Below, piece after piece: positions 1,269 through 55,565 of a stretch of 64,000 nucleotides of DNA; position 1 is the first letter of the stretch, and the number at the start of each line of letters is the position of its first letter. The position numbers and the translations under genes were made by a program. The DNA is from Kiritimatiellia bacterium (lineage in GTDB: Bacteria > Verrucomicrobiota > Kiritimatiellia > RFP12 > JAAYLN01). The notes under the pieces were generated by a model. The model saw nothing but the letters and a program-made list of their open reading frames with translations, did not search any database and had not been told where the DNA came from. The stretch is taken from assembly GCA_045603485.1 (NCBI GenBank), contig JAZUMF010000105.1:1903-65902 (forward strand). The letters run 5' to 3'.

Positions 1269-1688
1269 AAATAAACAAGTGTAATCGTGTGACACTTAAA
1301 GGTTGCTGCTGCAAAGGCGCAGAGATTTTGTGATACCGACTATTTCTTGTGTTAGTATAGGGAAGCTGGGCTATAGTGTCAAGTCTAATAGTCTGACACT
1401 TAAAGGTTGCACTTAAAGGTTGAAAATTTCTCCCGCGGAGAGCGCAGAGAAAATTGTGAGATTTTGTTCCGCACTGTAATCTCATGCGGTGGATGGTGGC
1501 GGACGGAGCAGCCACCGCAGAACTCTTAGAGAGAAACTGAAAAGGCCTGTCCCCTTAAAAGGTTTTCCCGCAAAAACGCTGAGGAATTGCAGCTTGGTTC
1601 TTAAAGGTTATTAGGTGGCAAGTTTGACAGTAAAGACAGTTTGCGAGTTTTACAGTTTTAATTGGTAAGGCCTGTCCCCAGAAAAGTT

Positions 1689-1723
1689 AGTAAATAGGTA
1701 ATAGTAAATAGGTAATAGGTAAT
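1689..1723. repeat. Heptad array (AGTAAAT/AGGTAAT) x5
   Basis: agtaaat aggtaat agtaaat aggtaat aggtaat. The paralogous array at 1947-1988 has 6 units. Confidence 0.85.
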
Positions 1724-1946
1724 AATGAAGAATGAATAATTTTTGTAGTTTTTAGGTTAAGTTTTTTGTGCCTTTTGCGAAGTACACGAAATTGGGAAGG
1801 CCTGTCTCCTTATAAAATTTTATCGCAGAGAATGCAGATAAATTGCAGCTTGGTTCTTAAAGGTTATTAGGTGGCAAGTTTGACAGTAAAGACAGTTTGC
1901 GAGTTTTACAGTTTTAAGTGGTAAGGCCTGTCCCCTTAGAAAAGTT

Positions 1947-1988
1947 AGTAAATAGGTAATAGGTAATAGGTAATAGGTAATAGGTAAT
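1947..1988. repeat. Heptad array AGTAAAT + (AGGTAAT)x5
   Basis: Perfect 7-nt periodicity, one more unit than the array at 1689-1723. Confidence 0.85.
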
Positions 1989-2202
1989 AATGAAGAATGA
2001 ATAATTTTTGTAGTTTTTAGGTTAAAACTGAAAAGGACTGTCCACTAAAAACTTTTACCGCAAAAAACGCAGAGATTTGTGATACCGACTATTTATTGTG
2101 TCAGTATAGTGAGGTTTTGTTGTTGTGTCAAGTGTAATAGTGTGACACTTAAAGGATGAGTCGTAGAATAGGGATAGTATAGGACTCGAAGGGAATATAC
2201 TA

Positions 2203-10730: not shown

Positions 10731-10956
10731 GAAGTAATAATATAAAATTTAAAGAGGAAAAGCAAATGGAATAATGGAGAGTGAAGCCATCATCTCGGCA
10801 AAAAGTGATTTGCCTTTTCATCGCTTGATAAATCCAACATTCTAGACATCTTATTAACGGAAATTTTTTAGTTCTACGACACTGAAAACTATTACGCACT
10901 TACGGCAATCTATACCGAGCGGTATTTATAATGACCGAATAGATAAATATCGGTAT

Positions 10957-11064
10957 CTTACCTTTTACCTCTTACTTCTTACCTTTTACCTTTTACCTTT
11001 CTTTAGGTTTTAGGTAATAGGTAATAGGTAATAGGTTCCGACAATTCGCAAGGCGAATTGGCGG
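10957..11064. repeat. Hairpin element copy A: (CTTACCT-like heptads) - loop - (AGGTAAT)3 - GGTTCCGACAATTCGCAAGGCGAATTGGCGG
   Basis: Direct reading. The left arm is rich in TTACC and the right arm is its complement, GGTAA. The terminal CAATTCGC/GCGAATTG forms an 8-bp stem. Confidence 0.8.
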
Positions 11065-11421: not shown

Positions 11422-11778
11422 TTATTTCGGATTCAGCTTTTTGAGCGATGCGACCAGGAGACGAATCAGCTCTTCGCAGTCGGTGTAGAGGGACTGATAC
11501 GAATCGCCATCAGGGATGAAACCGGTTTCGTGCAGCAATTCAAGCCAATACAACGTTTCACCGGCTTCTTTGAGTGCGATGGTCTGTTTGGAAATGAAGT
11601 CGTTTCTGGATTGCGCGTACTTGGCTTCCGCCAGATTAGCCCCTATCGACGTGCCGCACCGAAGGATCTGCTTTGACATCGTCGATTCGCGTTTTCCGCG
11701 CAGATATTTATGGAGATTGACGATACGGATGGCAAACGCCTTGGCCTTTGTCAGCATCACCGGGTCGGACATACACAT
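11422..11778 (-). CDS. Four-helix-bundle protein (TIGR02436-type; Avd / 23S-IVS protein family)
   Basis: 118 aa. ...SIGANLAEAKYAQSRNDFISKQTIALKEAGETLYWLELL... matches the conserved core of four-helix-bundle (bAvd-like) proteins. Confidence 0.75.
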   Translation of the reverse strand: MCMSDPVMLTKAKAFAIRIVNLHKYLRGKRESTMSKQILRCGTSIGANLAEAKYAQSRNDFISKQTIALKEAGETLYWLELLHETGFIPDGDSYQSLYTDCEELIRLLVASLKKLNPK

Positions 11779-12107
11779 CTCCTTTCTTAGGAAAACGACA
11801 AACTCCGCACTTCTTACCTTTTACCTCTTACTTCTTACCTTTGTTTAGGTTTTAGGTTAGAGGTAATAGGTAATAGGTAATAGGTTCCGACAATTCGCGC
11901 TTTCCGCGCAGATATTTATGGAGATTGACGATACGGATGGCAAACGTCTTGGCCTTTGTCAGCATCACCGAGTCGGACATACACATCTTCTTTCACAAGA
12001 AAACGACAAACTCCGCACTTCTTACCTTTTACCTCTTACTTCTTACTTCTTACCTTTGTTTAGGTTTTAGGTTAGAGGTAATAGGTAATAGGTAATAGGT
12101 TCCGACA
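11685..12107. repeat. Tandem direct duplication, 208 bp + 215 bp (~93% identity)
   Basis: Units 11685-11892 and 11893-12107 both begin ATTCGCG(T/C)TTTCCGCGCAGATATTTATGGAG. Each contains the 5' 31 codons of the four-helix-bundle gene plus one hairpin element. Unit 2 has an extra TTCTTAC heptad. Confidence 0.85.
11811..11898. repeat. Hairpin element copy B
   Basis: cttcttaccttttacctcttacttcttacctttgtttaggttttaggttagaggtaataggtaataggtaataggttccgacaattcgc. Confidence 0.8.
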
Positions 12108-12122
12108 ATTCGCAAGGCGAAT
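12018..12122. repeat. Hairpin element copy C, abutting the tRNA-Ser 3' end
   Basis: Same element with one extra heptad. It ends in the CAATTCGC-aagg-GCGAATTG hairpin immediately 3' of the tRNA CCA. Confidence 0.8.
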
Positions 12123-12214
12123 TGGCGGAGGGGGTGGGATTCGAACCCACGATGGCCGTAAGACCATGCCTGATTTCGAGTCAGGTACGTTCAACCAGGC
12201 TCCGCCACCCCTCC
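12123..12214 (-). tRNA. tRNA-Ser (anticodon CGA), CCA encoded
   Basis: The reverse complement gives GGAGGGG acceptor pairing with CCCCTCC. The anticodon stem-loop is CCTGA-CTCGAAA-TCAGG with U33 and A37. There is a long variable arm and a GGTTCGAATCC T-loop. Total length is 92 nt. Confidence 0.85.
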
Positions 12215-12288: not shown

Positions 12289-13134
12289 TTAGATATTTAC
12301 ATCAATCCATACAGGGATGTGGTCAGAGAGGCACATATAGTAATCAGGTGCATAGCGGTCGAAGGTGCGGACTGCATCTTTGGCTAAGCCTTTGACGAGG
12401 ATGTGGTCTATTGCGTTGATTGCCGGCTTTGGGGTGTAGGGCTTATAGCCGTCAGGGAAGCAGTAGTGGCAACCATGACCTTCATCGCGATGTTCTACAG
12501 CAAGGTCGTAGCAATGTTCGAAACCGCAGCTGAATGCCGCTTCTAGGGCCTGTGAGGTGCGGGTGGCGTTTAGGTCACCCATTAGAATTGCAGGGCAATT
12601 GTATTTTGCCTGAAACTTGTCTATCGCATTGATTGCAAGATTGATTTGATAGGCCCTTGCTTCGTCGGAAAAGGCTTGGTAGGATTTGGATTCGGGATTT
12701 GAGACTTTGTACCACAGGTGTGTTGTCGTTAGAATGAATAGCGCGCCTGTCTCTTTGATGCGAAATACTCCCAGATTATAGGATTTTGTTTTGCTGTTAT
12801 TGAAGATGCCTTCGTATTCGGGAATGTTGTCGGGATAAATCAGGAAGGTTGAGTCGACGAGTTCAAAGAGGTCTGTGCGATAAATTATAGGTGTGTCTCT
12901 TCCCCAGAGGAGAGCGTATGGTAAATTATTGTCTGAGAAGAGCTGCATGAGTTTGTCTGCCATGCGTGCAGTTACTTCTTGAAGTCCTAAGACATCGGGC
13001 TTTGTTTCAAGGTAGTATTTAAGAAAGCCTGGCATTCTTGCCTCTGGCGAGCAATCTTGACCGATTTTTTCCCATTCGGGCATATTTCTGTCGCAGGCCC
13101 ACTGGTTTGTGCTCATTATGCGTAACTTTTTCAT
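12289..13134 (-). CDS. Endonuclease/exonuclease/phosphatase (EEP) family protein
   Basis: 281 aa with an N-terminal LRIMSTN, LGLQEV, and a C-terminal SDHIPVWIDV, all typical of EEP-fold hydrolases. Confidence 0.7.
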   Translation of the reverse strand: MKKLRIMSTNQWACDRNMPEWEKIGQDCSPEARMPGFLKYYLETKPDVLGLQEVTARMADKLMQLFSDNNLPYALLWGRDTPIIYRTDLFELVDSTFLIYPDNIPEYEGIFNNSKTKSYNLGVFRIKETGALFILTTTHLWYKVSNPESKSYQAFSDEARAYQINLAINAIDKFQAKYNCPAILMGDLNATRTSQALEAAFSCGFEHCYDLAVEHRDEGHGCHYCFPDGYKPYTPKPAINAIDHILVKGLAKDAVRTFDRYAPDYYMCLSDHIPVWIDVNI

Positions 13135-13150: not shown

Positions 13151-14377
13151 TTATCGGCTTAAATAGATAAGGCTTTCAAAATGCGCCGTTCTCGGGAACA
13201 TGTCAAAGACTTTAGCCTTCTTTATCTTGAAGCCTTTTTCCGCAAGAGACGAGAGGTCGCGTGTGAGGGTCGCGGGATCGCACGAAACATAGATCAGCTT
13301 TTGCAGTTGTGAGGAGGCGAGTGCCTGTACCGTTTCAGGCTCCATGCCTTGACGAGGGGGGTCTGCAATGACGACGGCGTCATTTAGAGGTATGTCATCG
13401 AGACCGTTCTTTGCGAAGCCCGCAACCGTATCGCAGATGAAGGTGACGCCGCTGAGACCAAGGTTTTTTGCATTTCGCTTTGCCGCGGCTATGGCATTGC
13501 GCCCGCTTTCTACGCCAATGATGTTTTTGAAGCCGTCCGCGGCTGCCGCAAGCGCAAAAACGCCTACACCGCAGTAGAGGTCAAGGAGGGTGTTGCAAGG
13601 CGTTTCTGAGACGATTTCCTTTAACCACTGGCGTACTTGCTCGACAAGCGCGTAAGCGACTTGCGGGTTTACCTGGTAAAAGCCGTCTGTTGGAACCTGG
13701 AGGTCGCCGACGGGGGAGTGTTCGGTTAGGCAGCCGATGTCGGACGGCGCTTTGCCTTCCCACGATAAGACGCCGTCCGCTTCTGTATGTCGAAATGTAA
13801 TTGATGCTCCATCGGGGAGAGAGTATGCGGCATGCTGTCTCATGCGAGACCAAGCATAGTTGATTGATGGATTTGCAAGCGGACAGCGTTGTATGTCGAC
13901 GACGGTCTTGTTGTCTTCACCCAAATAACCGATTTTGCATTGGGCTCCCCTGCGCTGCACATGAAGGACGATTTTATTGCGGTAGCCAAGTGGAGCGGGT
14001 GAAGCGAAGGGGGGGAGAAAGACTTCGGGGGCGGCGAGGTTGCGAAGGAAGTTTTTTAGCTGGCTGTTTTTTAGGTCAACTTCTGCCTTGTAATCAACAT
14101 GGTCGTAGACGCAGCCAGGAACAAGGATTCCTTCTTCCGTACGGCAACATGGCTCAATTCGATTGGCTGACGGTGTGAGAACCTTGATGAGAGTGGCGTT
14201 TTGAAAGCGCTTTTTATTTGAGACTATCTTTGCAAGGACTTTTTCGCCCGGGAGTGTGCCGGGAATGAAGGTGACGATTCCGTCGTCTTTTGCAATGCCG
14301 GCCCCACGATATGCGACATCGACAATCGTGAATTCCTGTATTCTGCCTTGACCTTGCGAAGTATGTTGCGTTTCCAT
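13151..14377 (-). CDS. rlmD: 23S rRNA (uracil-C5)-methyltransferase RlmD/RumA family (TRAM + SAM MTase)
   Basis: N-terminal TRAM-like domain, a Cys cluster (CCRTEEGILVPGC..C), SAM motif LLDLYCGVGVFAL, and DPPRQG. Confidence 0.8.
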   Translation of the reverse strand: METQHTSQGQGRIQEFTIVDVAYRGAGIAKDDGIVTFIPGTLPGEKVLAKIVSNKKRFQNATLIKVLTPSANRIEPCCRTEEGILVPGCVYDHVDYKAEVDLKNSQLKNFLRNLAAPEVFLPPFASPAPLGYRNKIVLHVQRRGAQCKIGYLGEDNKTVVDIQRCPLANPSINYAWSRMRQHAAYSLPDGASITFRHTEADGVLSWEGKAPSDIGCLTEHSPVGDLQVPTDGFYQVNPQVAYALVEQVRQWLKEIVSETPCNTLLDLYCGVGVFALAAAADGFKNIIGVESGRNAIAAAKRNAKNLGLSGVTFICDTVAGFAKNGLDDIPLNDAVVIADPPRQGMEPETVQALASSQLQKLIYVSCDPATLTRDLSSLAEKGFKIKKAKVFDMFPRTAHFESLIYLSR

Positions 14378-19469: not shown

Positions 19470-19738
19470 GTAATCTCCTTTTTATATATCAGGATACGAA
19501 ATCAGTTCCATTAAAGATTCGGAACACGCATTCCAATAGAAATCTTTATAAAACCAAATTCGTCTATAGTTTATATTTAGCATAAAGTTTTTGTCAAGTG
19601 ATAATTTCGCATTGTATTGCTACGAATAGCTTTTTTTGCTAATATGCCTTCTCAAGTGACAGGCCTTGCATAAACAATATTGCCAAATACCCCACTTTTT
19701 GGTAATATATTTACTTAAGGGACAGGCATCCAAAACAA

Positions 19739-20455
19739 CAAGGAAAACCAAGAGTCAAGAATATAGTCGAAAGCTACTACCATATAGTAAGCAGATGTAT
19801 CTTCAGTCAGTTTTTGCTGGGGGATACGGATAAAGACATGTTCGTCAAGATGATGCGTACAATAGCCTATTTCAGTGGAATAGATATACTCAACTATTGC
19901 GTGATGGACAACCACTTTCATCTCCTCGTTCATGTACCTGAGCCATCAAAGCCTACAGAAGCACTATTACTAAAACGCATATCCGCACTCTACGGTAGAC
20001 TCCACGCAGCTGACCTTAAGAGCCGCTGGTATGAACTAAAGAAGCAAAACCGACCAGATATTGTCGAAGAAGAGCAGGCGGCATTCATTCGCCGCATGGG
20101 AGATATAACACCATTTATGCAGTGCCTAAAGCAACGCTACTCAGCCTGGTACCGCGCAAGACACGACTACAAACAAGGCACAATGTGGGAAGGTCGTTTC
20201 CGCAGCACACTAGTAGAAGGCACCTCAGAAACCCTCTCCTCAATCTCAGCCTACATCGACCTAAATCCCGTCCGCGCAGGCATAGTAGACGACCCCAAAG
20301 ACTACAAATGGGCAGGCTTTGCCAATGCGCTGAAAGGCGATAGCAAATCAATGGAAGGCATAGCAAAGATGTATGACAAAACAGCTAGTGACACATCCTT
20401 TGCAGATTTGGCGAAAGAATATCGTCTAAAGAAGTCGGAGGCCAAGCGGTCTTAG
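19739..20455 (+). pseudogene. RAYT/IS200-like transposase, degenerate copy (ATG replaced by CAA; 3'-truncated at 20430)
   Basis: It aligns codon-for-codon with the intact copy, but the start is CAA GGA instead of ATG AGA. After ...EYRLK the frame runs into the inverted 3' flank of copy 2, giving KSEAKRS*. Confidence 0.6.
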
Positions 20456-20485
20456 GAAGACAACATTCACACACAACTCCTTGGC

Positions 20486-21343
20486 TCACAGAACGACATG
20501 GCTACGATCCGACTTTGAGCCTATGATGGCGCCGTGTGTGAAGTGGCGTATTTTGCAGCGAAGTATTACCGATAACGGTAACTCGCCTTTTTCATCTATT
20601 ACTTCTTGTACCTTTTCTGGCTCTATTGCATCGGAGCCGCGTACATAGAGTTTTAGACGATATTCTTTTGCCAAATCTGCAAAGGATGTGTCTTTAGCTG
20701 TTTTGTCATACATCTTTGCTATGCCTTCCATTGATTTGCTATCGCCTTTCAGCGCATTGGCAAAGCCTGCCCATTTGTAGTCTTTGGGGTCATCTACTAT
20801 GCCTGCGCGTACGGGATTTAGGTCGATGTAGGCTGAGATTGAGGAGAGTGTTTCTGAGGTGCCTTCTACTAGGGTGCTACGGAAGCGCCCTTCCCACATT
20901 GTACCTTGCTTGTAGTCGTGTCTTGCGCGGTACCAGGCTGAGTAGCGTTGCTTTAGGCACTGCATAAATGGTGTTATATCTCCCATGCGGCGAATGAATG
21001 CGGCCTGTTCTTCTTCGACAATATCGGGGCGATTTTGCTTCTTTAGCTCATACCAGCGGCTTTTAAGGTCAGCTGCGTGGAGTCTTCCATAGAGTGCCGA
21101 TATGCGTTTTAGTAATAGTGCCTCTGTGGGCTTTGATGGCTCTGGTACATGAACGAGGAGATGGAAGTGGTTATCCATTACGCAATAGTTGAGTATATCT
21201 ATTCCGCTGAAATATGCTATTGTACGCATCATCTTGACGAACATCTCTTTATCTGTATCCCCCAGCAAAAACTGACTGAAGATACATCTGCTTACTATAT
21301 GGTAGTAGCTTTCGCCTGCGTTCTTGACTCTTGGTTTTCTCAT
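20486..21343 (-). CDS. IS200/IS605-like Y1 (HUH) transposase, RAYT-like, with C-terminal extension
   Basis: 285 aa with HUH motif HFHLLVH at ~aa 60 and Tyr-containing YSAWYRARHDY at ~aa 135, then a ~135-aa C-terminal extension. Confidence 0.7.
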   Translation of the reverse strand: MRKPRVKNAGESYYHIVSRCIFSQFLLGDTDKEMFVKMMRTIAYFSGIDILNYCVMDNHFHLLVHVPEPSKPTEALLLKRISALYGRLHAADLKSRWYELKKQNRPDIVEEEQAAFIRRMGDITPFMQCLKQRYSAWYRARHDYKQGTMWEGRFRSTLVEGTSETLSSISAYIDLNPVRAGIVDDPKDYKWAGFANALKGDSKSMEGIAKMYDKTAKDTSFADLAKEYRLKLYVRGSDAIEPEKVQEVIDEKGELPLSVILRCKIRHFTHGAIIGSKSDRSHVVL

Positions 21344-21560
21344 TGTTGTCTCCTTGTGGTGAATGTGGCAGACTTTGGGTCTGTCCCTCGGTCAAATATA
21401 TTACCAAAAAAGAAGATGCTTGGCAATAATTTTGTATAGCACTTTCTCGGATGCCTGTCCCCTAGGCAGATATATTACCAAAAAGTGGGATATTTGGCAA
21501 TATTGTTTATATAAGGCCTGTCCCTCAGTAAAGATGTTAGCAAAAAAGGCGGAGCGAATT
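21344..21560. repeat. Three tandem ~60-bp REP-like units upstream of the intact RAYT gene
   Basis: (G)TCTGTCCCTCGG-TCAAATATATTACCAAAAAAGAAGATGCTTGGCAATAATTTTGTAT is followed by GATGCCTGTCCCCTAGGCAGATATATTACCAAAAAGTGGGATATTTGGCAATATTGTTTAT and then AAGGCCTGTCCCTCAGTAAAGATGTTAGCAAAAAAGGCGGAGCGAATTGGCAACATTAATGTG. Confidence 0.75.
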
Positions 21561-21620
21561 GGCAACATTAATGTGGTTTTGATATAATACTCACCATCTT
21601 GACTTTTTGAAAGGACTGCT

Positions 21621-42958: not shown

Positions 42959-44446
42959 CTAGGAATTGCGCGGAGTCCTTTTATGGTGACGCGGTCTGTC
43001 GCCGCTATCACGATGCGAACCGTGGCTATTATTTGAATCGTGACGATTCTCTCTCTTCTTGGCTGGAGGGAGTGGTGCAAAAAGCGGATCGTCGTCCTGG
43101 AGCATAGTGGTCTTGAGAGGCTCTCCGATATACTCCTCAATATCGGGAATCACAAAAGACTCGTCTTCATCGGCAAAGGATACTGCCGTTCCTACCTGTC
43201 CAGCTCTTCCTGTACGACCTATGCGATGAACATAATCCTCTGCCTCGTATGGAAGCTCAAAATTGACTACGAGACCAATGTCGGCTATGTGGAGACCGCG
43301 CCCTGCCACATCAGTTGCAACAACGAGCTTTGTCGCCCCTGACTTGAAATTTTCAAGGACATGCATTCTTGCAGCTTGACTTACATTACCGGACAAAAGA
43401 TCGCAAGAAAAACCCTGAGAACGCAATCTCTCGGCCAAAGCGTCAGTACTTGTTCGACGATTGCCAAAAACAAGAACGCGCTCACCCTTATGCTCTTTAA
43501 GCAAATTGCAGAGAACCGTAAACTTTTGAGAGGAGGTTACGATAAAGACTCTTTGGTCGATATTCTGATTGGTGGTGCGCTCAGGCTCAATCTCAACCTT
43601 TACGGGATCTGGCATCCACTGCGAAGCCAATCGCATTACTTCATCGTTGAGCGTTGCACTGTAAAGCAATGTTTGCCTATCCTGAGGTAAAGCGCGGATG
43701 ATTTTGCGGACATCAGGGATAAAGCCCATATCGAGCATTCTGTCGGCTTCGTCGATTACGAGCGTATCAATCTTTGATAAATCGACGACATGCTGACGAA
43801 TGAAATCTATTAAACGGCCCGGCGTTGCTGCGAGGAGATCAACGGGACCCTCCTGGAGCATTTTTTGCTGTTTTGAGTAATCCATTCCTCCGAAAACGGC
43901 CATAGAGCGTAAATTGCAGTATTTACCCAAGGCCTGAGCGTCGGAACATATCTGAACGCAAAGCTCTCTTGTGGGTGCAATAACCAAAGCTCTTGGAGTT
44001 GCTGAATTATTCTGGCGTTTATCGGGAGTCCGCAAATATCGGGTCAATATTGCAACTAGGTATGCCGCTGTTTTGCCGGTTCCTGTCTGGGCACGACCTG
44101 CAACATTCAAGCCTGACATTGTCTTATCGAGACTGGCGGCCTGAATGGGAGTGCAATATCTGAAGCCTAAATCTGAAATCGCATGCATGATTTCAATAGG
44201 CAAATCAAAATCATGGAAGCGCTTCTTACCTTCTTGGGGCTCAACCTGGAAGGATTCGATAGACCAATTCGAAACTCGGTTCTTCTTTGGCTTATCTAAA
44301 AGCCGAGACTCCTTACGCCGCGAACCTGACGGTTTCTTGGAGGAAGGAGTCTTGTTTGAGGGAAATGCCCCGCCTTTTTTTGGCGAGGCATCCTTTGATG
44401 ATCTTCCCTTTTTGAAGAGGGAAACAATTTTTGCAAAAAAGCCCAT
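42959..44446 (-). CDS. DEAD-box ATP-dependent RNA helicase with basic N- and C-terminal tails
   Basis: Q-motif, AQTGTGKT, DEAD, SAT and HRIGRTGRAG are all present. Confidence 0.85.
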   Translation of the reverse strand: MGFFAKIVSLFKKGRSSKDASPKKGGAFPSNKTPSSKKPSGSRRKESRLLDKPKKNRVSNWSIESFQVEPQEGKKRFHDFDLPIEIMHAISDLGFRYCTPIQAASLDKTMSGLNVAGRAQTGTGKTAAYLVAILTRYLRTPDKRQNNSATPRALVIAPTRELCVQICSDAQALGKYCNLRSMAVFGGMDYSKQQKMLQEGPVDLLAATPGRLIDFIRQHVVDLSKIDTLVIDEADRMLDMGFIPDVRKIIRALPQDRQTLLYSATLNDEVMRLASQWMPDPVKVEIEPERTTNQNIDQRVFIVTSSQKFTVLCNLLKEHKGERVLVFGNRRTSTDALAERLRSQGFSCDLLSGNVSQAARMHVLENFKSGATKLVVATDVAGRGLHIADIGLVVNFELPYEAEDYVHRIGRTGRAGQVGTAVSFADEDESFVIPDIEEYIGEPLKTTMLQDDDPLFAPLPPAKKRENRHDSNNSHGSHRDSGDRPRHHKRTPRNS

Positions 44447-44841
44447 TAGCGCTTGGAGAACTGGAAGCGACGGCGTGCACCGGGCTGACCTGGCTTCTTA
44501 CGTTCCTTCATACGAGGATCGCGGGTAAGGCAACCTGCAGCCTTGAGGGTTGCGCGGTATGCTTCGCGGTCTGCCTCGCAGAGGGCGCGTGCAAGAGCGT
44601 GGCGGATAGCGCCAGCCTGACCAGATGTTCCGCCACCGGAGGTGTAAGCGATGACATCAAACTTCTCAGTTGTTTCGGTGAGGTTAAGGGGCTGTGCCAT
44701 AAAGGCGCGGGTTGCCTCACTTGGGAAGAGCTCTGCAACTTCACGGCCGTTTACGGACCACTTGCCGGTTCCGGCAGCTAAGCGAACGCGAGCGACAGCG
44801 GTCTTCCTGCGACCAGTAGCTTGTGCGATAATCGTGGACAT
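44446..44841 (-). CDS. rpsI: 30S ribosomal protein S9
   Basis: 131 aa with a C-terminal ...[12 protein letters not shown], typical of S9. Confidence 0.9.
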
Positions 44842-44871
44842 AATTTCCTCTTTCGTTACTTTGCCGGACGA

Positions 44872-45303
44872 TTAGATGAGCTCAACGGCACGGGGCTTCT
44901 GTGCGGCATGAGTGTGCTCAGGGCCAACGAAAATACGAAGGCGCTTCATCATGCGGCGGCAGAGGTGATTGCCAGGAAGCATACCGAAAACAGCCTGCTC
45001 GACGAGGCGCTTTGGCTCGCGCTCACGAACCTGCTCAGCCGTCATTGTGCGACGGCCGGCACGCCATCCGGTGTAGGTCTGGTAAATCTTCTGCTGCTCT
45101 TTTGAGCCTGAAAGCTTTACTTTCTCAGCGTTGATGACAACGACGAAATCACCGGTGTCAACCATTGGTGAGAAGGTGGGCTTATTCTTGCCACGAAGAT
45201 GGTTTGCAATCTCGACAGCGAGGCGGCCGAGGGGTTTATCAGCGGCGTCAACGAGAATCCACTCGCGGTTGGCACCGGGATCTTTGGGAAGGAAGGACTT
45301 CAT
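44872..45303 (-). CDS. rplM: 50S ribosomal protein L13
   Basis: 143 aa; N-terminal MKSFLPK...REWILVDAADKPLGRLA. Confidence 0.9.
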   Translation of the reverse strand: MKSFLPKDPGANREWILVDAADKPLGRLAVEIANHLRGKNKPTFSPMVDTGDFVVVINAEKVKLSGSKEQQKIYQTYTGWRAGRRTMTAEQVREREPKRLVEQAVFGMLPGNHLCRRMMKRLRIFVGPEHTHAAQKPRAVELI

Positions 45304-45331
45304 GATCTTACTTCTTTTCCTAAGGGGTTAG

Positions 45332-45736
45332 TTATGCCTTGGCGGGTTCTTCGACAGGCTCGGGGGTGACGACAGCCTTGGGAGCCGCGACCCACTCGAG
45401 GATGGCCATCTCTGCAGCGTCACCACGACGGGTACCCGTCTTGATGATGCGAGTATAACCACCGGGACGACCGTCCATAGCGGGGACAACAGCGTCAAAG
45501 AGCTTGCTGACAGCCTCAGGATTGCGGAGGCGAGCAGCAGCGAGACGACGAGAAGCAAGCGTTCCCTTACGGGCGAGCGTTACCATCTTCTCTGCATCAC
45601 GACGAGCCTGCTTGGCCTTGGGAAGGGTCGTGATGATACGATCGTTTAGAATCAAGTTTGCGACAAGTGATTCCATCAAAGCTTTACGATGGGACATCGA
45701 CCTGCCGAATTTCTTAGCAATGCATTTATGTCGCAT
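45332..45736 (-). CDS. rplQ: 50S ribosomal protein L17
   Basis: MRHK...GRSMSHRKALM is the L17 N-terminal signature. Confidence 0.9.
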   Translation of the reverse strand: MRHKCIAKKFGRSMSHRKALMESLVANLILNDRIITTLPKAKQARRDAEKMVTLARKGTLASRRLAAARLRNPEAVSKLFDAVVPAMDGRPGGYTRIIKTGTRRGDAAEMAILEWVAAPKAVVTPEPVEEPAKA

Positions 45737-45765
45737 GACAGCACTCTTTTCTCAAAAATGTGTTA

Positions 45766-46818
45766 CTAGGCGTTGCGGTAGGGAGCAAGGAGCGCGGGGT
45801 CAATCGCGTTGATATCTGCCAAACCAAGATCTTTGAGCTTGTCACGAATTTCATCAAGTGACTTTTGACCAAAGTTACGGTACTGGAGCATCTCTTCCTC
45901 TGACTTGCAGGCAAGGGCACCGACTGTCTCGATCTTCTCTCTGTTCAAGCAGTTCGAAGAACGGACGCTAAGCTCAAGCTCGCTAATCTTCATAGCAAGG
46001 ATAGCGCGAATCTTTTCGGCATCCTTTGATGCACCATTGGATGAGGCAGAAGACTGAACACCCACTTTTTCAATGCGCTCGGGAAGGGCTTCAGACGAGA
46101 TTACCGTGCCGACGAATACATCAAAGTGGCGACGGATCAACTCTGCACCGGTGTGCAAAGCCTCGTCAGGGGTAATACGACCATCGGTCCAAACCTCGAG
46201 GACAAGCTTCTCATAGTCTGTTCTGTCGCCAACACGCTTCGCATCTGCGGAGAAATTGACGCGGGTAACAGGTGAGTGGATGCTGTCTATTGGAATGAGA
46301 CCAATAATCTGATCGTCAGGACGATTCCAATTGGCGGGATGGAAACCATAACCCTTTGCAATCTCGGCTTCGAGCTCAAACTCGCCACCAGCGGCAACTG
46401 TGGCGATAGGAAGCTCAGGGTTGACGATTGTGACGGCATTTTGAGCCTCGAAATCGCCAGCCGTGACTGTGCAAGGTCCCTTCTTGCTGATGGTGATCCG
46501 CTCAGGAATCGAGCCAACAGTCTTGATAAGAACCTGCTTAAGGGCGATGATGATGTCCGTCACGTCTTCTGCAATGCCCTTAACTGTGGTAAACTCGTGG
46601 TCTGCACCCTTGATGCGGACTGCGGTGATTGCCACACCCTCGATTGAGGAGAGGAGAACGCGACGGAGTGCAATACCGACCGTCTGCGCGTAGCCGTTCT
46701 CAAATGGACCAGCCTCATAGCGAGCATAGTTGTCGGTAGCTGTAGCTTCGTCTTTCTGCACGCCCTCGGGCATATAAAACTTAATCTCTGACATGGTGGA
46801 AACCCTTTCGCTCTCCAC
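45766..46818 (-). CDS. rpoA: DNA-directed RNA polymerase subunit alpha
   Basis: 350 aa with an N-terminal dimerisation domain and a C-terminal alpha-CTD (...LELSVRSSNCL...); sits in the alpha operon. Confidence 0.9.
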   Translation of the reverse strand: MESERVSTMSEIKFYMPEGVQKDEATATDNYARYEAGPFENGYAQTVGIALRRVLLSSIEGVAITAVRIKGADHEFTTVKGIAEDVTDIIIALKQVLIKTVGSIPERITISKKGPCTVTAGDFEAQNAVTIVNPELPIATVAAGGEFELEAEIAKGYGFHPANWNRPDDQIIGLIPIDSIHSPVTRVNFSADAKRVGDRTDYEKLVLEVWTDGRITPDEALHTGAELIRRHFDVFVGTVISSEALPERIEKVGVQSSASSNGASKDAEKIRAILAMKISELELSVRSSNCLNREKIETVGALACKSEEEMLQYRNFGQKSLDEIRDKLKDLGLADINAIDPALLAPYRNA

Positions 46819-46850
46819 GCTAGGCGATTAACTCGCCTGGCGTGAGTAAA

Positions 46851-47480
46851 CTACCTGGAGTAGAGTTCGACGATCGCCTGCTCGTCTGCGACGGGGGCGA
46901 TTTCTTCGCGGGTTGGAACGCTGAGGATCTCGCCGCGGAAAGCCTTGGGATCAATGCTAATCCAAGAAGGCATCTGAGCCTGTGTGGCGGCCTCAAGTGA
47001 ACGAGCGGCCTCGTCACGACTACGCTGACGATTGCGGACCTCAATCACATCGCCGACCTTGACGCGCATCGAAGGGATGTTTGCCGTGTGGCCATTGATA
47101 GCAATGTGCTTGTGAAGTACAAACTGACGAGCAGCTGGACGGGAGGGAGCCAAACCCATACGATAGACTACATTGTCAAGACGCATCTCGAGGTTGACGA
47201 GAAGGTTGACACCAGTAACACCCTTGGCGCGGAGGGCGTTCTCGAAGAAACGATGGAACTGACCTTCCTGCATGCCATACTGGCGACGTAGTTTCTGCTT
47301 TTCACGGAGCTGAATGCCGTAATCTGAAGCCTTGCGGCCTCTCTTGGCGCCATGGACGCCAGGGGCATTGCGCCCCTTATCTATTGCGCACTTGCCAGAG
47401 TAGCAACGTGCACCCTTGAGGAATAATTTTGTGCCGGCTCTGCGACACATCCTGCAAGAAGGACCGGAATACCTGCCCAT
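46851..47480 (-). CDS. rpsD: 30S ribosomal protein S4 (Zn-ribbon type)
   Basis: MGRYSGPSCRMCRRAGTKLFLKGARCYSGKCA. Confidence 0.9.
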   Translation of the reverse strand: MGRYSGPSCRMCRRAGTKLFLKGARCYSGKCAIDKGRNAPGVHGAKRGRKASDYGIQLREKQKLRRQYGMQEGQFHRFFENALRAKGVTGVNLLVNLEMRLDNVVYRMGLAPSRPAARQFVLHKHIAINGHTANIPSMRVKVGDVIEVRNRQRSRDEAARSLEAATQAQMPSWISIDPKAFRGEILSVPTREEIAPVADEQAIVELYSR

Positions 47481-47984
47481 TTATACTCTCCTGCGTTTAC
47501 GAGCACGGCAGCCGTTATGAGGTACTGCAGTGCAGTCGCGAATCATGCTCACCTGGATGCCAGCATTCTGGATGGCACGAACTGCAGACTCGCGTCCGGC
47601 ACCTGCGCCATGAATACGGACTTCAACCTCGTGCATACCCTTGGCAACAGCCTGACGGGCAGCATCCTGTGCAATCATCGTAGCAGCAAAGGCCGTAGAC
47701 TTGCGTGAACCGCGGAAACCAGCCTTACCAGCTGAGCTCCAGGAGATCACACCGCCACGAGCGTCTGCAATTGAGACGATTGTGTTGTTGAAGGTCGCCT
47801 TAATGAAGGCAATCCCGGCAGGAATGCTCTTGCCGCGGGACTTCTTGCCCTTAGCCTTTGCATCCTCGCCATCGGCGGTAGAGGCGGCCGCGACATCAGG
47901 CCCGCCCATGTTCAAGACAGCCATTGCCTCGCTTCTTGCTTCGTCAACAGGCTGTTCTTCCTTACGATCGATTTCTTCGCTCAT
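47481..47984 (-). CDS. rpsK: 30S ribosomal protein S11 (with ~35-aa acidic N-terminal extension, or internal start)
   Basis: Core ...[16 protein letters not shown]...[13 protein letters not shown]... Confidence 0.85.
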
Positions 47985-47998
47985 GCGTCAATCCTCCG

Positions 47999-48400
47999 TT
48001 ATGCGCCGGCCTTCATTGCCTTACGCTCTTCCTTGTCACGAACCGCGCTCACGGTCTTCTTTCCACCCTTGCGGGTACGAGCGTTCGTCTTTGTGCGCTG
48101 ACCACGGCAGGGCAATCCGCGACGGTGACGCTGACCGCGGTAAGAGCCCGTGCTGATGAGGCGACGGATATTCTGGGAAACTTCACGACGAAGATCGCCT
48201 TCGACGCGATAGTTCTCCTGAATGAACGCAATAATCTGACGGAGCTCGTCAGCAGTTAGCAACTCTGCGTGCTTCGACGCATCAATGTTGCATGCGGCCA
48301 CGATCTCGTTGGCCCTTTTAGGACCGATTCCATGGATGTAGCGTAGAGCATAATCTACGCGCTTCTTTCCAGGAACGTCCACACCTACTATTCTTGGCAT
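47999..48400 (-). CDS. rpsM: 30S ribosomal protein S13
   Basis: MPRIVGVDVPGKKRV... and a basic C-terminus. Confidence 0.9.
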   Translation of the reverse strand: MPRIVGVDVPGKKRVDYALRYIHGIGPKRANEIVAACNIDASKHAELLTADELRQIIAFIQENYRVEGDLRREVSQNIRRLISTGSYRGQRHRRGLPCRGQRTKTNARTRKGGKKTVSAVRDKEERKAMKAGA

Positions 48401-48414
48401 GGTAATATCTCCAG

Positions 48415-48528
48415 TTATCCTTGACGCTGTTTATGACGGGGATTGGTGCAGCACACACGCACAACACCCTTGCGTCGCACAATCCTGCAACGCTCGCAAA
48501 TCCTACGAACTGAACTCTTCACCTTCAT
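48415..48528 (-). CDS. rpmJ: 50S ribosomal protein L36
   Basis: Manual translation gives [37 protein letters not shown] (37 aa, Zn-ribbon type). It is not in the ORF track because it is under 60 aa. Confidence 0.9.
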
Positions 48529-48647
48529 GGCGTGTTCTCCGCTTACTCTTTCCCTAATTGAAAAAAACTAGACAAATAGTTTACCTAAATTAGCAAATTT
48601 TGTCCACTAAAAAATTTACGAGGCATTCCGAACCCTTTCGGTCCCCT

Positions 48648-49403
48648 TTAATCTTCCCTAGGAGTGAGGATTTCCGCACCTCCGGGGACGATTGCAATCG
48701 TATGCTCAAAATGCGCTGCGGGGAGCCCATCTCGAGTTACGACCGTCCACTCGTCACTCAGCACCTCTATACGAGGAGAGCCTCGTGTCAGCATCGGTTC
48801 TATGCAAAAGACCATTCCTTCCTCAAGTACTGGACCTCGACCCGGTTTGCCGAAGTTTGGAACTTGGGGCTCTTCATGCATTGAGCGACCAATGCCGTGA
48901 CCGACAAACTCGCGAACTACTCCGCATTTGCCGGCACGAGCGACCTGCTCTACTGCAGCCGAGACATCAGAAAGCCTTCTTCCTGGTGCCGCTGCCGCAA
49001 TTCCTGCCGCAAGGGCAGATTTTGTCACCTGAAGCAACTCTTCCGTTTCAGGCGGCACATCACCTATCGCAACTGTCACGGCATTGTCGCCATGATAGCC
49101 ACGATAATTCACAACCACATCCAGACTGACGATATCACCTAAGCGAATAACTCTTTTTCCGGGTATGCCGTGAATAACCTCCTCGTTTACCGATACGCAA
49201 AGAGCTCCCGGGAAACCGCAGTAGCCAAGCGTTGAACTTTCTGCTCCAAGACCTCTTGTGGTCTTGAGACAAATCGCATCAATATCGGCGGTAGTCATAC
49301 CGGGCTCGAGGCTTTCCCGGCAGACTCGAAGTACTTCAGCCGCTAAACGACCTGCTTCGCGCATGCCGTCAAGGGCTTTGCCTTTTTTAAGGGCGATTTT
49401 CAC
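48648..49403 (-). CDS. map: Methionine aminopeptidase type I
   Basis: 251 aa with metal ligands in ...HGIGR...FCIEPM... contexts. Confidence 0.85.
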   Translation of the reverse strand: MKIALKKGKALDGMREAGRLAAEVLRVCRESLEPGMTTADIDAICLKTTRGLGAESSTLGYCGFPGALCVSVNEEVIHGIPGKRVIRLGDIVSLDVVVNYRGYHGDNAVTVAIGDVPPETEELLQVTKSALAAGIAAAAPGRRLSDVSAAVEQVARAGKCGVVREFVGHGIGRSMHEEPQVPNFGKPGRGPVLEEGMVFCIEPMLTRGSPRIEVLSDEWTVVTRDGLPAAHFEHTIAIVPGGAEILTPRED

Positions 49404-49404
49404 C

Positions 49405-50058
49405 TTACTCCGAAATGGCTTTTGCGACCTTTGCCGCTACTTCGTCGGCATCGCCTACACCGTCAATCTTGGTCAAAACACCCTTTGATTCATACCAGCC
49501 GAGCAATGATGCTGTCTTTTCGTGGTAAATCTTGAGGCGATTGGCAACATTTTCCGGGGCGTCATCCGGGCGCTGAACGAGTTCAGCTCCGCAGGCATCG
49601 CAAATTCCGTCAACTTTAGGCTTCATGGTTTCGACATGGAATCCGGCACCGCACTTTGGACAGGTGCGACGGCCTGAAAGGCGACCAACTAGGATATCTT
49701 CGCCAACCTCAAGCCAAATTGCCTTTGAAACCTTCTCCCCGTTCTTGGCAAGCTCTGCTTCAAGGAACGCAGCCTGCTTTTCATTACGGGGATAGCCGTC
49801 AAGAAGAAAATATTCGTACTCGCCCTTGCACTTGCCAAGCTGTTCGATAACAAGCGCGCCGACGATTTCGTCTGAAACCAGCTCGCCTTTTTTCATCGTC
49901 TCGGCGACGGACTTGGCGAGGGGTGAATCCGCATTGGCAGCGGCAGCGCGAAGCAAATCGCCAGTTGAGACATGCTTCAAGGGAAGAGTCTTCACAAGAC
50001 GAGCCGCTACGGTACCTTTACCGGAGCCGGGGGCTCCAAGAATTGCAACAATCTTCAT
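49405..50058 (-). CDS. adk: Adenylate kinase (Zn-lid type)
   Basis: GAPGSGKGT P-loop and a lid with CPKCG...CDACG. Confidence 0.9.
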   Translation of the reverse strand: MKIVAILGAPGSGKGTVAARLVKTLPLKHVSTGDLLRAAAANADSPLAKSVAETMKKGELVSDEIVGALVIEQLGKCKGEYEYFLLDGYPRNEKQAAFLEAELAKNGEKVSKAIWLEVGEDILVGRLSGRRTCPKCGAGFHVETMKPKVDGICDACGAELVQRPDDAPENVANRLKIYHEKTASLLGWYESKGVLTKIDGVGDADEVAAKVAKAISE

Positions 50059-50062
50059 TAAA

Positions 50063-51424
50063 TTATCTCCTTGCCTGAATGCGACCGTGCTTTAAGAAGC
50101 CATCATAGTGACGCATTGTAAGATAGGATTCCATCTGGCGAAGCGTATCAAGCGCAACACCGACGATAATCAAAAGTGATGTACCACCGAAGAAGCTTGC
50201 CATTTCCCAAGGAAGCTGCAGGTGTGCATTAAGAAGGTTGGGGAAGATAGCAACGATGATTAGTCCGATTGCGCCAATCAATGTGACGCGGGACATTGTG
50301 TGGTCGAGGAACTCTGCAGTTGCACGACCAGGACGAATGCCAGGGACATAACCACCGGTGCGCTTCAAATCGTCAGCAATGCGTACGGCATTGAATTGGG
50401 TAGCGACCCAGAAGAAAGAGAAGAAGAGAACGAGCAAAGAGAAGGAGATGATGTATGCCCAGCTGGTACCGTTGACAAGAGCCTGACCAATGCTGTTGAG
50501 CCACATAAACTTGGGAGCGGTGATCTTGGTCAAGAGCATACCGGGTATGCTGAGAATCGGACCGGCAAAGATGATGGGCATAACGCCAGAGAAGTTTACG
50601 CGAAGCGGCATATAGTTTGCCATGCCGCCGTAAGCACTTGCTCCGGCAGAACGACGGGCCGAATGAATCTGAACCTTGCGGACACCTTGCGTTAGCATCA
50701 CAGTACCGGCACAGACAAGGAAACCTACGAGGAGAAGAAGGATAAGCTCGAAGAAGGAATTGGTCGCCTGCTTTGAGAAATAACGGCTCCATGCATCATA
50801 GATAGCCATCGGAAGGCGGGAGCAGATGTTAATCATGATGATTAGCGAAATGCCGTTACCGATACCGCGGGCGGTAATCTGATCGCCGAGCCACATTACG
50901 AGCATTGCCGCTGTGGTCATGGAGATAATGGTGAGAATCTCAAATCCGAATCCAGGATTTGATACGAGTGTAATTCCTTCCATTCCAAGATAGGCGGGAT
51001 TTTCAAGACCGCGTGCGATGAACCAGCCTTGGAAAATGCAAATTACAATCGTGAAATAACGAGTCCACTGATTGAGTCTCTGGCGACCTGCCTCACCGTC
51101 ACGCGCCATACGCTCAAGAGCGGGAATAATGGCCGTCATAAGCTGCAAGATAATTGATGCACTGATGTACGGCCATATTCCTAAAAAGCCAACCGAGCAC
51201 TTCCCGAGTGCACCACCCGAGAAGACATCAAGCATTCCCATTAGACCACCTGTGGTTCCAGAAGCCTCACGGAAGCGTTCAAGTGCTTCTGCCAATGCGC
51301 TCCAATTAACACCTGGTGTCGGTATCATCGAAACCAAACGGCAAATGGCAACGAGACCGAGCGTAAAAAGGATGCGTTTCTTTAACTCTGGAACTTTGAA
51401 TGTATTGGCGAATGCTTGTAGCAT
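50063..51424 (-). CDS. secY: Preprotein translocase subunit SecY
   Basis: 453 aa with 10 TM segments; positioned after rplO. Confidence 0.9.
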   Translation of the reverse strand: MLQAFANTFKVPELKKRILFTLGLVAICRLVSMIPTPGVNWSALAEALERFREASGTTGGLMGMLDVFSGGALGKCSVGFLGIWPYISASIILQLMTAIIPALERMARDGEAGRQRLNQWTRYFTIVICIFQGWFIARGLENPAYLGMEGITLVSNPGFGFEILTIISMTTAAMLVMWLGDQITARGIGNGISLIIMINICSRLPMAIYDAWSRYFSKQATNSFFELILLLLVGFLVCAGTVMLTQGVRKVQIHSARRSAGASAYGGMANYMPLRVNFSGVMPIIFAGPILSIPGMLLTKITAPKFMWLNSIGQALVNGTSWAYIISFSLLVLFFSFFWVATQFNAVRIADDLKRTGGYVPGIRPGRATAEFLDHTMSRVTLIGAIGLIIVAIFPNLLNAHLQLPWEMASFFGGTSLLIIVGVALDTLRQMESYLTMRHYDGFLKHGRIQARR

Positions 51425-51448
51425 GGCTGGTTCCCCGATTTAGGTTGA

Positions 51449-51883
51449 TTAGACTACTTCGCACTTGCCGCCGGCAGCCTCGATCTTGGCCTTGGCGGAC
51501 TCAGAGAAGGCGTGAGCCTTGACTGTGAGAGCAACCTTGATTTCACCGGCGCCAAGAATCTTGACACGGCAGCCATCAAAAAGACCCTCTGCTGCGAGCA
51601 TGCAAGGTGTGACCTCGCTACCAGCCTCAAACTTATTGAGGGATGCGACATTGACACCAAAGAAGGGGCAACGGGCTGGGTTCTTGAATCCGCGCTTTGG
51701 AAGGCGACGGAGAAGCGGCATCTGGCCACCTTCGAAGCCGAGCTTCGACTTGTGACCCTTGCGAGCATACTGACCCTTATGACCGCGACCTGATGTTTTA
51801 CCGAGACCAGAGGCGCGACCGCGACCGCGACGCTTGGCAGTCTTACGGGCTCCTGGTTCGTTTGTTAGGCTATGCAAATCCAT
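51449..51883 (-). CDS. rplO: 50S ribosomal protein L15
   Basis: ...[21 protein letters not shown]... Gly/Arg-rich N-terminus. Confidence 0.9.
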
Positions 51884-51937
51884 TGTGTATATCTCCGGGG
51901 CGACCCATTGTCATGAAGTCGCCCTCTATTATTGGGA

Positions 51938-52447
51938 TTAGGCGCGAGATTCTGCAAGAGCCTCTGCAGAGCGGAGCTGACGGAGAGCGTCAACTGTTGC
52001 CTTGACAACATTGAGGCGGTTCTTGCTACCGAGCGACTTGCCCACGACGTCACGGACGCCAGCGGCTTCGAGGACGGGGCGCATGCCGCCGCCACAGATA
52101 ACACCCGAACCGTCGGGAGCGGGCTTGAGGAGTACGCGACCGCCGTCTGCGTTGCCGAATACCTCATGAGGAATCGTACGACCCTTCATGGTGACAGGCA
52201 TCATATCGCGACGGGCTGCTTCGCCACCCTTGCGGATTGCCTCGGAAACCTCATTGGCCTTACCGAAGCCGAAACCGACGCGACCTTCGCGGTCACCGAC
52301 TACGACGACAGCTGAGAATGACATGCGACGACCGCCCTTGACGGTCTTGGCGCAACGGTTGACGAAAACTACGCGCTCATCAAACTCGTTTGCAGCCTGG
52401 GGTGCATTCTGGCGCGGACGGCGCTTTTCACCTTGTTCCATAGCCAT
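51938..52447 (-). CDS. rpsE: 30S ribosomal protein S5
   Basis: ...[18 protein letters not shown]...; no rpmD (L30) gene follows it. Confidence 0.9.
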
Positions 52448-52450
52448 GGC

Positions 52451-52837
52451 TTACTTAGCCTCCTCTTCGGTTTCAGTGGCGGAGATAGCTTTCTCCGAAA
52501 TCTTGAGACCAGCCTCGACGGCAGACTCAACGAGAGCCTGGACGCGACCGTGGAAATCAAAACCGCCACGATCGACGACGACGAGAGAAATACCCTTGGC
52601 CTGAGCGACCTCAGCGGCCTTGCGACCGGCCTCAGTAGCGGCGGCAACATTGAGTTTGCCGTCCTTGCCAACGGTTGAGAAGGCTGCGAGAGTCTTCTCG
52701 GCTTCGTCATCGATGAACTGAACCGTGATATTGCGGTTTGAGAAGTACAGGGACATGCGGGGACGAGCAGCTGTGCCCTTCACCTTCTGGCGAAGGCGCT
52801 GATGGCGAACCCGACGCTGTTCAATGCGATTCTTCAT
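52451..52837 (-). CDS. rplR: 50S ribosomal protein L18
   Basis: Position, size and basic N-terminus. Confidence 0.85.
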   Translation of the reverse strand: MKNRIEQRRVRHQRLRQKVKGTAARPRMSLYFSNRNITVQFIDDEAEKTLAAFSTVGKDGKLNVAAATEAGRKAAEVAQAKGISLVVVDRGGFDFHGRVQALVESAVEAGLKISEKAISATETEEEAK

Positions 52838-52862
52838 GTGATTAAAAACCTTTCAGGCCGCG

Positions 52863-53402: not shown

Positions 53403-53415
53403 GGCTACTTCCTTT

Positions 53416-53808: not shown

Positions 53809-53820
53809 TGTGTCGTTCTC

Positions 53821-54006: not shown

Positions 54007-54017
54007 AGGTTGACTCC

Positions 54018-54563: not shown

Positions 54564-54576
54564 AAGTTCCTCTCAA

Positions 54577-54891: not shown

Positions 54892-54912
54892 TATATAAGC
54901 TCCTATTCCGTA

Positions 54913-55278: not shown

Positions 55279-55287
55279 GACAACCCC

Positions 55288-55563: not shown

Positions 55564-55565
55564 GG

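Follow-up and report, generated by a model that had tools for sequence, protein, structure and literature searches.

Candidate end or operator sites of a RAYT-like gene cassette: a conserved box brackets the gene in a Kiritimatiellia clade

Features of the locus

We analysed a 64,000-nt stretch of a Kiritimatiellia bacterium contig (JAZUMF010000105.1; hereafter the window), in which a short box, CTGTCCC(T), recurs beside two copies of a gene resembling REP-associated tyrosine transposases (RAYTs; REP, repetitive extragenic palindrome) and again in an orphan cluster 17.5 kb from these copies. A preliminary description of the window had taken the boxes for a REP/BIME (bacterial interspersed mosaic element) family mobilised by the RAYT. 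The RAYT-like gene, the tie between box and gene, and the orphan cluster hold up in our analysis, whereas convincing palindromes, inverted pairs within the arrays and a GTAG foot were not found; inverted copies of the box bracket the gene in related species. The features under study are listed below by window coordinates, and names such as L001 denote related loci from public assemblies and metagenomes.

1542 to 2045, plus strand: orphan box cluster, with AAGGCCTGTCCC(C) at 1544, 1669, 1799 and 1925 and a degenerate GGACTGTCCAC at 2035, all direct
19617 to 19731, minus strand: units B' and C' upstream of gene copy 1, with boxes at 19718-19728 and 19655-19665 read on the minus strand
19733 to 20455, plus strand: RAYT-like pseudogene (copy 1), its ATG lost through a 12-nt deletion relative to L001, truncated after residue ~232
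20431 to 20651, no strand: junction of the two convergent truncated copies, without the 3' flank and downstream boxes of full-length relatives
20486 to 21343, minus strand: RAYT-like Y1 HUH gene (copy 2), an open reading frame (ORF) of 285 aa with HUH residues NHFH at 58-61 and Tyr172 in YIDLNP
21378 to 21449, plus strand: unit A, with box GGTCTGTCCCT at 21378-21388 and a promoter-like TTGCCA-N17-TAATAT on the minus strand at 21426-21398
21452 to 21514, plus strand: unit B, with box TGCCTGTCCCC at 21452-21462 and a promoter-like TTGCCA-N17-TAATAT with extended -10 TG on the minus strand at 21500-21472
21515 to 21558, plus strand: unit C, the outermost, with box GGCCTGTCCCT at 21515-21525 and TAACAT/TTAGCAAAAA
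21559 to 21588, plus strand: promoter-like site of the divergent GH39 gene, TTGGCA-18-TATAAT, with 11/12 consensus matches, outside the repeat

Together with their upstream regions, copies 1 and 2 form a 688-nt inverted duplication (95% identity). Copy 2 had been called intact, but its ORF of 285 aa falls short of the 323-331 aa found in most homologues: the protein diverges from the 99%-identical full-length P0001 after residue ~277, and its conserved C-terminal ~50 aa are replaced.

The five plus-strand copies of GGCCTGTCCCC in the orphan cluster lie exactly where they had been placed, at 1544, 1669, 1799, 1925 and 2035 (0, 0, 1, 0 and 2 mismatches, respectively). The copies near the gene exist as well, although their coordinates needed correction: the inverted ones are at 19655-19665 and 19718-19728 rather than 19657 and 19719, and the direct ones begin at 21378, 21452 and 21515 rather than 21379, 21449 and 21524. 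Three tandem units are indeed found upstream of the gene, but their start-to-start distances are 74 and 63 nt and not the ~60 bp described.

The box occurs above chance, as claimed. With up to one mismatch, GGCCTGTCCCC has 6 matches in the window against 0.82 expected, and 0/100 shuffles reach 6; the 12-mer AAGGCCTGTCCC (up to one mismatch) has 6 against 0.20, and the composite of box plus ATRTTASCAAAAA has 4 against 0. At two mismatches the signal of GGCCTGTCCCC is diluted (21 matches, 12.9 expected). The window has nine CTGTCCC 7-mers, seven of them inside the two clusters, and the conserved element of the boxes is [GA]CCTGTCCC[TC]. These counts are inflated because of duplication (256-bp tandem at 1.5-2 kb; 95% inverted at 19.6 kb), and about five independent occurrences remain, namely units A, B and C plus two orphan types. 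An Rfam search of both box regions, at the gathering threshold and at E up to 1, returned only a tRNA.

Inverted boxes bracket the gene in related genomes

A REPtron is a RAYT/TnpA-REP gene flanked by REP/BIME sequences, as in the yafM type of E. coli (PMC2817692; PMC3116915; structure 4ER8). We compared eight independent related loci (47-99% protein identity). In six of them, a motif with a TGTC core stands in inverted copies on either side of the full-length gene, so that the inverted flanking on both sides that characterises a REPtron is found in L056, L044, L045, L128, L130 and L049. The proposed tie between box and gene is thereby borne out in other species, where inverted copies lie on both sides of the orthologues, the way REPs do around RAYT genes. 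In the window, the 3' side has been lost. In L056, a 2.5-kb contig of the same species with 94.5% nucleotide identity over gene and units, the order is units C, B and A, the full-length gene, and then two boxes of opposite orientation at ~+225 and ~+265 past the stop codon. The arrangements in the other five loci are as follows.

L044, 73% aa identity: one box upstream, 34 nt before the ATG; three boxes downstream, +211 to +357
L045, 69% aa identity: one box upstream; two boxes downstream
L128/L129, 58% aa identity: inverted pair A[T/C]AGACAGACAATTTTT, one copy on each flank
L130, 55% aa identity: inverted pair TAAAGGGACAG[A/G]CAATTTG, one copy on each flank
L049, 47% aa identity: perfect 17-nt inverted pair AATTACCAGACAATTTG, one copy on each flank

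The repeats of L130, L128 and L049 are inverted pairs 17-23 nt long. When the best inverted repeat around the gene was compared with 200 shuffles, those of L045, L128, L130 and L049 scored above 199-200 of them, and the TGTC core is common to all; CTGTCCCT itself is kept down to 55% protein identity. In the distant locus L046, two tandem 40-nt upstream units contain GGTGACAGTC. The arms are more alike within a genome than between genomes (within-genome matches of 17/17, 18/19 and 18/19), and between genomes they drift along with the protein. This co-variation and the retention of CTGTCCCT fit recognition by a co-evolving protein. In the window's clade, a ~215-nt 3' spacer ahead of the downstream boxes is homologous across species as well. 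Because boxes, gene and spacer are conserved together, the inherited unit is a cassette (boxes, gene, spacer, boxes), which is the REPtron arrangement.

The RAYT-like protein

The description of the neighbouring gene as RAYT-like is well founded. Its product matches Pfam Y1_Tnp (E 1.3e-14); its best NCBIfam model is REP_Tyr_transpos (NF047646; 53.4 bits, E 2.5e-14, the best match yet below the 80-bit equivalog cut-off), and transpos_IS200 reaches 29 bits against a cut-off of 55 bits. The predicted fold is closest to E. coli TnpA-REP (4ER8). Of the class 2 TnpA-Y1 features, a Y1 HUH fold, the HuH motif and the catalytic tyrosine in Y---NP are present. Judged from sequence and predicted structure, the protein is a class-2 (RAYT-type) TnpA-Y1, nearest to subclass 2.3, with a different C-terminal region. 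This C-terminal domain has no sequence match in Pfam or the PDB, and modelled alone it gives a poor structure (pLDDT 64).

Homologues at E up to 1e-10 number 3,390, and nearly all are 320-331 aa long; the few with a name belong to Kiritimatiellia or carry the IMG label 'REP element-mobilizing transposase RayT'. A scan of viral contigs with the protein profile gave no match.

Upstream units contain promoter-like modules

Read on the coding strand, each unit consists of TTGCCA-N17-TG-n-TAA[T/C]AT, a gap of 9-10 nt, and then AGGGACAG. In a consensus promoter scan, units A, B and B' score 9/12 matches with an extended -10 TG. The promoter-like site of unit A points at the RAYT-like gene, and the box begins 10 nt past its -10 hexamer; for B' and C' the sites occupy 19680-19708 and 19617-19645 of the plus strand, and in both the box follows after 10 nt. 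The gap from -10 to box is 9 or 10 nt in every complete unit (window, L001, L056 and L044), and L044 keeps it despite different hexamers (TTTCAA-17-TATACT). The shared ATATTACC...TTGGCAATA segment, which had been taken as part of the repeat, therefore reads best as a duplicated sigma-70-like promoter aimed at the gene (TTGCCA-N17-TGnTAATAT), and given the coding-strand reading of the units the ATATTACCAAAAA...TTGGCAATA motif is the reverse complement of a promoter-like -10/-35 pair. The '60-bp REP-like units' thus seem to be mostly duplicated promoter modules, which is a warning for genome annotation.

Unit C departs from this pattern in the window, where its -35 side is replaced; unit C of L056 and of L001 keeps TTGCCA-N17-TAACAT. 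The apparent right arm of the window's unit C, TTGGCAAC, is the -35 of the GH39 gene and is non-homologous to the arm in L001 and L056, and the 'TTGGCAACATT' of unit C is likewise supplied by the GH39 promoter-like site at 21559-21588. Unit A is an indel polymorphism, present in the window and L056 and absent in L001.

In the distant loci L130, L049 and L046, a promoter-like site has the box across or immediately beside its -35. From these placements in near and distant relatives, the upstream box always lies within or next to the core promoter of the gene. In insertion sequences, transposase-binding ends and operators are commonly located within or beside core promoters.

These placements could also be explained at the level of regulation or RNA alone: the units would be tandem promoters, the box either an operator for a host factor or a stretch of the 5' untranslated region that pairs with the 3' boxes, with no role in recombination, and the orphans would be unrelated. 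The constant promoter-to-box gap of 9-10 nt agrees with this, as does the complementarity, within one transcript, of 5' GGGACAG and 3' CTGTCCC in the window's clade; the co-variation of the arms between genomes is what a pairing model predicts. Pairing alone, however, does not require that the core sequence be kept across 47-99% protein identity, and in L130, L049 and L046 the upstream box is at or upstream of the -35 and thus outside the predicted transcript. Moreover, convergent genes enclose the further copies of the 12-mer AAGGCCTGTCCC at 1.5-2 kb, a position where a promoter or operator is unexpected, and it is the whole cassette, not the gene alone, that changes context between strains. 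We consider a purely regulatory role unlikely.

Orphan cluster and possible dispersal of the boxes

The orphan cluster is found between convergent genes, in a 256-bp tandem duplication, and is the one orphan locus in the 64 kb of the window. It carries an exact 12-mer match to the box of unit C; neither a promoter module (promoter scan) nor a hairpin (single-stranded DNA folding) was found in it. A derivation of the orphans from a decayed 3' end of the cassette was rejected, local alignments to the 3' flanks of L001, L056, L045 and L044 being at shuffle level. L131, the only contig of the same species at the orphan locus, stops within another repeat 77 nt beyond the neighbouring gene.

To look for the composite unit elsewhere, we scanned 596 Gb from 185,579 species-representative genomes and 241 million metagenome records. 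Two window proteins looked up by exact sequence gave no match, and the source genome is in neither collection. To be searched, a pattern must specify at least 14 bases, so that box-only copies escape both scans. The genome scan, with the pattern CTGTCCC-N7-13-ATRTTASCAAAAA, returned 42 single matches in unrelated organisms, and the two from the PVC (Planctomycetes-Verrucomicrobia-Chlamydiae) group that we examined are chance matches in coding sequence. Out of 76 loci from the metagenome scan, two are real (L056 and L087), and the matched units in both are RAYT-upstream units; neither scan contains the composite unit anywhere other than beside the RAYT-like gene.

The cassette itself occurs in more than one context in the window's species: adjacent to GH39 (window copy 2 and L001) and next to other genes (both sides of L056, and window copy 1), and the left part of L087 is possibly a further context. 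We note that the gene-bearing metagenome contigs contain sequencing adapters, TruSeq AGATCGGAAGAGCGT and Nextera CTGTCTCTTATACACATCT (L001 at 1461-1473, L056 at both ends, L087 at 968-1003), and that L087 is a chimera joined via an internal adapter.

Two copies and several contexts would suit an ordinary insertion sequence, in which the gene and its terminal inverted repeats form one autonomous mobile element and the orphans are decayed ends. The 17-23-nt arms tight around the gene in L049, L128 and L130 resemble terminal inverted repeats, and insertion sequences typically carry a promoter in their left end. Against this, identical proteins are found at one conserved housekeeping-gene locus in 6-12 assemblies, and neither an identical multi-copy pattern nor target-site duplications were seen. 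Furthermore, Y1 HUH transposases of the IS200/IS605 type do not use inverted ends, and the Y---NP motif and fold place the protein with RAYT-type class 2 and not with IS200 (PMC6006769). An ordinary insertion sequence is, in our view, quite unlikely.

Folding and REP-type features

The units had been proposed to form stem-loops, but as single-stranded DNA they fold no better than shuffled sequences (z from -1.6 to +1.3). Unit A folds at -5.6 kcal/mol (z -1.06) and unit B forms a weak AT-rich hairpin at -7.6 kcal/mol (z -1.60); unit C, the orphans, the 3' boxes of L056 and the arms of L130 all have positive z values (+0.1 to +1.35). The partial self-complementarity of the ATATTACCAAAAA...TTGGCAATA motif gives a weak AT-rich stem. 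A hairpin shared by units B and C, with a compensatory A:T to G:C change, was rejected, because the right arm of unit C is the -35 hexamer of GH39 and the folds match those of shuffles. The expectation of inverted pairs (BIME- or REPIN-like) also fails, all copies inside each array being direct, and no GTAG or GTGG was found at any stem foot in the box sequences of the window and L056 (foot sought: GT[AG]G or CGTC). In total, three of the five defining features of REPs that were tested fail (a 20-40-nt imperfect palindrome with a stable stem-loop, GTAG foot and alternating orientation), and the inverted gene-flanking layout is present. For the fifth, extragenic dispersal in tens to hundreds of copies per genome, the window offers one orphan locus in 64 kb. 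The boxes should not be filed as a REP/BIME family.

A classical REP/BIME family, with the 60-bp units as imperfect-palindrome REPs mobilised by the RAYT and present in many dispersed genomic copies, does account for several observations: the RAYT-like fold together with the inverted flanking layout; the location of the orphan cluster between convergent genes, typical of REPs; and the 11-bp AT-rich stem, with one A.C mismatch, that units A and B can form. Most public contigs carrying the gene are just 1.2-1.9 kb long, as if flanking repeats broke the assemblies, but the short contigs may just reflect 2-6x coverage. Folding at shuffle level argues against palindromic REPs; unit C, the orphans and the boxes of relatives do not fold, and the putative arms coincide with -35 and -10 hexamers at a 17-nt spacing. 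The arrays are direct rather than alternating and lack the GT[AG]G foot. With the composite unit beside the gene alone in both collection scans, and relatives without copies in up to 21 kb, such a family is improbable.

A cassette with putative cognate boxes

With moderate confidence, we favour the explanation that the boxes are cognate end or operator sites of a RAYT-like cassette and the orphans solo sites. On this view, CTGTCCC(T) would serve the RAYT-like Y1 HUH enzyme encoded beside it as its cognate DNA site and would mark both ends of a ~1.1-1.6-kb gene cassette, which on the coding strand would read 1-3 GGGACAG boxes, gene, 3' spacer, and 1-3 CTGTCCC boxes; by this order, GGGACAG ... 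CTGTCCC, the cassette shares the inverted ends of a REPtron. Each ~60-70-bp unit upstream of the gene in the window's clade would be a copy of the left end of the cassette, and the tandem units may have arisen via duplication or re-insertion of that end. Since the promoter-like site precedes the box by 9-10 nt, the box is predicted to sit at the transcription start. Bound at this position, the enzyme could recognise its end and at the same time repress its own promoter, which would couple end recognition to autoregulation. The orphan boxes at 1.5-2 kb may be solo sites, products or relics of the enzyme's activity that were then locally duplicated in tandem.

Several points weigh against this explanation. 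Its main weakness concerns the substrate: to our knowledge, every characterised Y1 enzyme, including TnpA-REP, recognises single-stranded DNA hairpins, and a convincing hairpin is absent beside the boxes. Both gene copies in the window are defective, and L127 and L046 have no clear downstream partner in the flanking inverted-repeat test. The orphan cluster shares only the 10-12-nt box with the cassette units, not the 60-bp unit. The boxes of distant relatives show no sign of mobility: no extra boxes were found in up to 21 kb around the gene (5-21 kb each, ~80 kb in total), and these relatives are single-copy, with the gene at one locus among housekeeping genes and identical proteins in 6 and 12 assemblies. 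The analysis shows that the boxes are conserved, consistently oriented and co-variable with the gene, that the protein has the predicted fold and catalytic residues, and that the promoter-to-box gap is constant; enzyme binding or cleavage, autoregulation and the origin of the orphans are what we infer.

RAYT-type enzymes are widespread and apparently domesticated transposases whose cellular role is unknown. The boxes provide a candidate substrate or operator for such enzymes: conserved and varying together with the gene, they flank it on both sides across a Kiritimatiellia clade and lie on its promoter. A more speculative extension, which we regard as doubtful at present, is that the non-palindromic CTGTCCC(T) box is the missing substrate of the '325-aa' branch of RAYT-like enzymes (2.1/2.3-like), recognised as a linear box and not as a hairpin, with the orphans as a hairpin-less element dispersed by a RAYT. 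If true, these would be the first associated repeats for a branch with more than 3,000 homologues.

Other repeats and genes in the window

The heptamer TAGGTAA and its complement TTACCT(T) are arrayed in long, hairpin-capable inverted blocks at 10956-11036, 11812-11885 and 12020-12100. These blocks bracket an ORF for a four-helix-bundle protein (23S_rRNA_IVP, Pfam E 2.3e-25; 11422-11778, minus strand) as well as a 208-bp tandem duplication (11685-12113), and end beside a tRNA-Ser (12123-12214). TAGGTAA arrays also follow two of the orphan boxes (1688-1724 and 1951-1989), and in the same-species contig L131 the homology to the window stops exactly at 10956.

A second small repeat family occupies 1276-1409 and 2076-2158. 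Its 83-nt unit is present twice (84% identity), and each copy has, on the minus strand, a promoter-like site close to consensus, TTGACA-17-TATACT (11/12). A 30-nt core, CAAGTGTAATNGTGTGACACTTAAAGG, is present three times and includes a GTGTCA/TGACAC hairpin. L131 ends inside an 83-nt copy at 2126, as if the repeat broke assemblies. In L046, from a distant Kiritimatiellia-like genome, intergenic arrays of the heptamer GAATGAA are found at 12805-12817, 13950-13962, 19863-19875 and 20025-20056, and its AATGAAGAATGAA motif is also present in the 1.7 and 2.0 kb repeats of the window; intergenic repeats built from heptamers may be typical of this clade.

At 44000-63500 on the minus strand, dense short ORFs resemble, by ORF layout only, the S10-spc-alpha operon region of ribosomal proteins. 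If this reading is correct, the window would be chromosomal rather than mobile-element DNA.

Comparison with known systems

Among the published TnpA-Y1 subclasses, the protein is most like 2.3, which is related to 2.1 (Bertels group 1) (PMC6006769). Its length (328 aa, compared with ~325 aa), the distance from HuH to tyrosine (113 aa from H59 to Y172, compared with ~110 aa), the motifs (NHFH, WEGRF and YIDLNP, compared with NH[YF]H, WE and Y[IV]DLNP) and a large ~55-aa beta3-alphaC insertion all agree, and the protein, its insertion included, aligns with a 324-aa member from Pseudoalteromonas (hhalign probability 99.4%, residues 2-192 only). Unlike subclass 2.3, as far as this one representative and not the authors' profiles can tell, its C-terminal ~135 aa are unaligned and the ~10-aa beta1-alphaA insertion is absent; the host is Kiritimatiellia-like and not from Alteromonadales or Chromatiales. 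We also note that in Pseudoalteromonas sp. CuT4-3 (NZ_CP142031.1; L132, 1374-1486) two direct 27-30-nt repeats GACACCCATCTTAAATTTTGCACTTAA accompany a 324-aa subclass-2.3-like Y1 gene, with an inverted GACACCCATCTTAAATTTTGCACTTAA copy ending 3 nt before its ATG; the published survey had no repeats for this subclass (PMC6006769).

Like IS200/IS605 elements (IS608, ISDra2), the cassette has short specific sequences adjacent to the gene that are likely recognition sites. IS200/IS605 elements have subterminal hairpins in the same orientation on one strand, a Y---Q motif, a protein of 130-150 aa and multiple near-identical copies, whereas the ends here are inverted and without clear hairpins, the motif is Y---NP (YIDLNP), the protein has 328 aa, and relatives carry one copy.

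A search of the literature found no work connecting repeats with RAYT-type genes in Kiritimatiellia or the PVC group. Automatic and manual searches had found no REP-like sequences for subclasses 2.1 and 2.3 (Quentin et al. 2018, PMC6006769); in contrast, conserved inverted boxes flank the gene here. As in a REPtron, the protein has the Y---NP tyrosine motif, short conserved inverted repeats flank the gene left and right, and the repeats co-vary with the protein. Distant relatives have the gene in single copy at one stable locus, and the window's species has two adjacent defective copies and at least one other context. Unlike those of a REPtron, the repeats are non-palindromic boxes of 10-19 nt in direct arrays, without a stable hairpin or GT[AG]G foot, and at 328 aa the protein has double the length, including a ~55-aa insertion and a C-terminal extension. 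If the boxes are cognate sites of the enzyme, the cassette would show a REPtron-like organisation without palindromic REPs.
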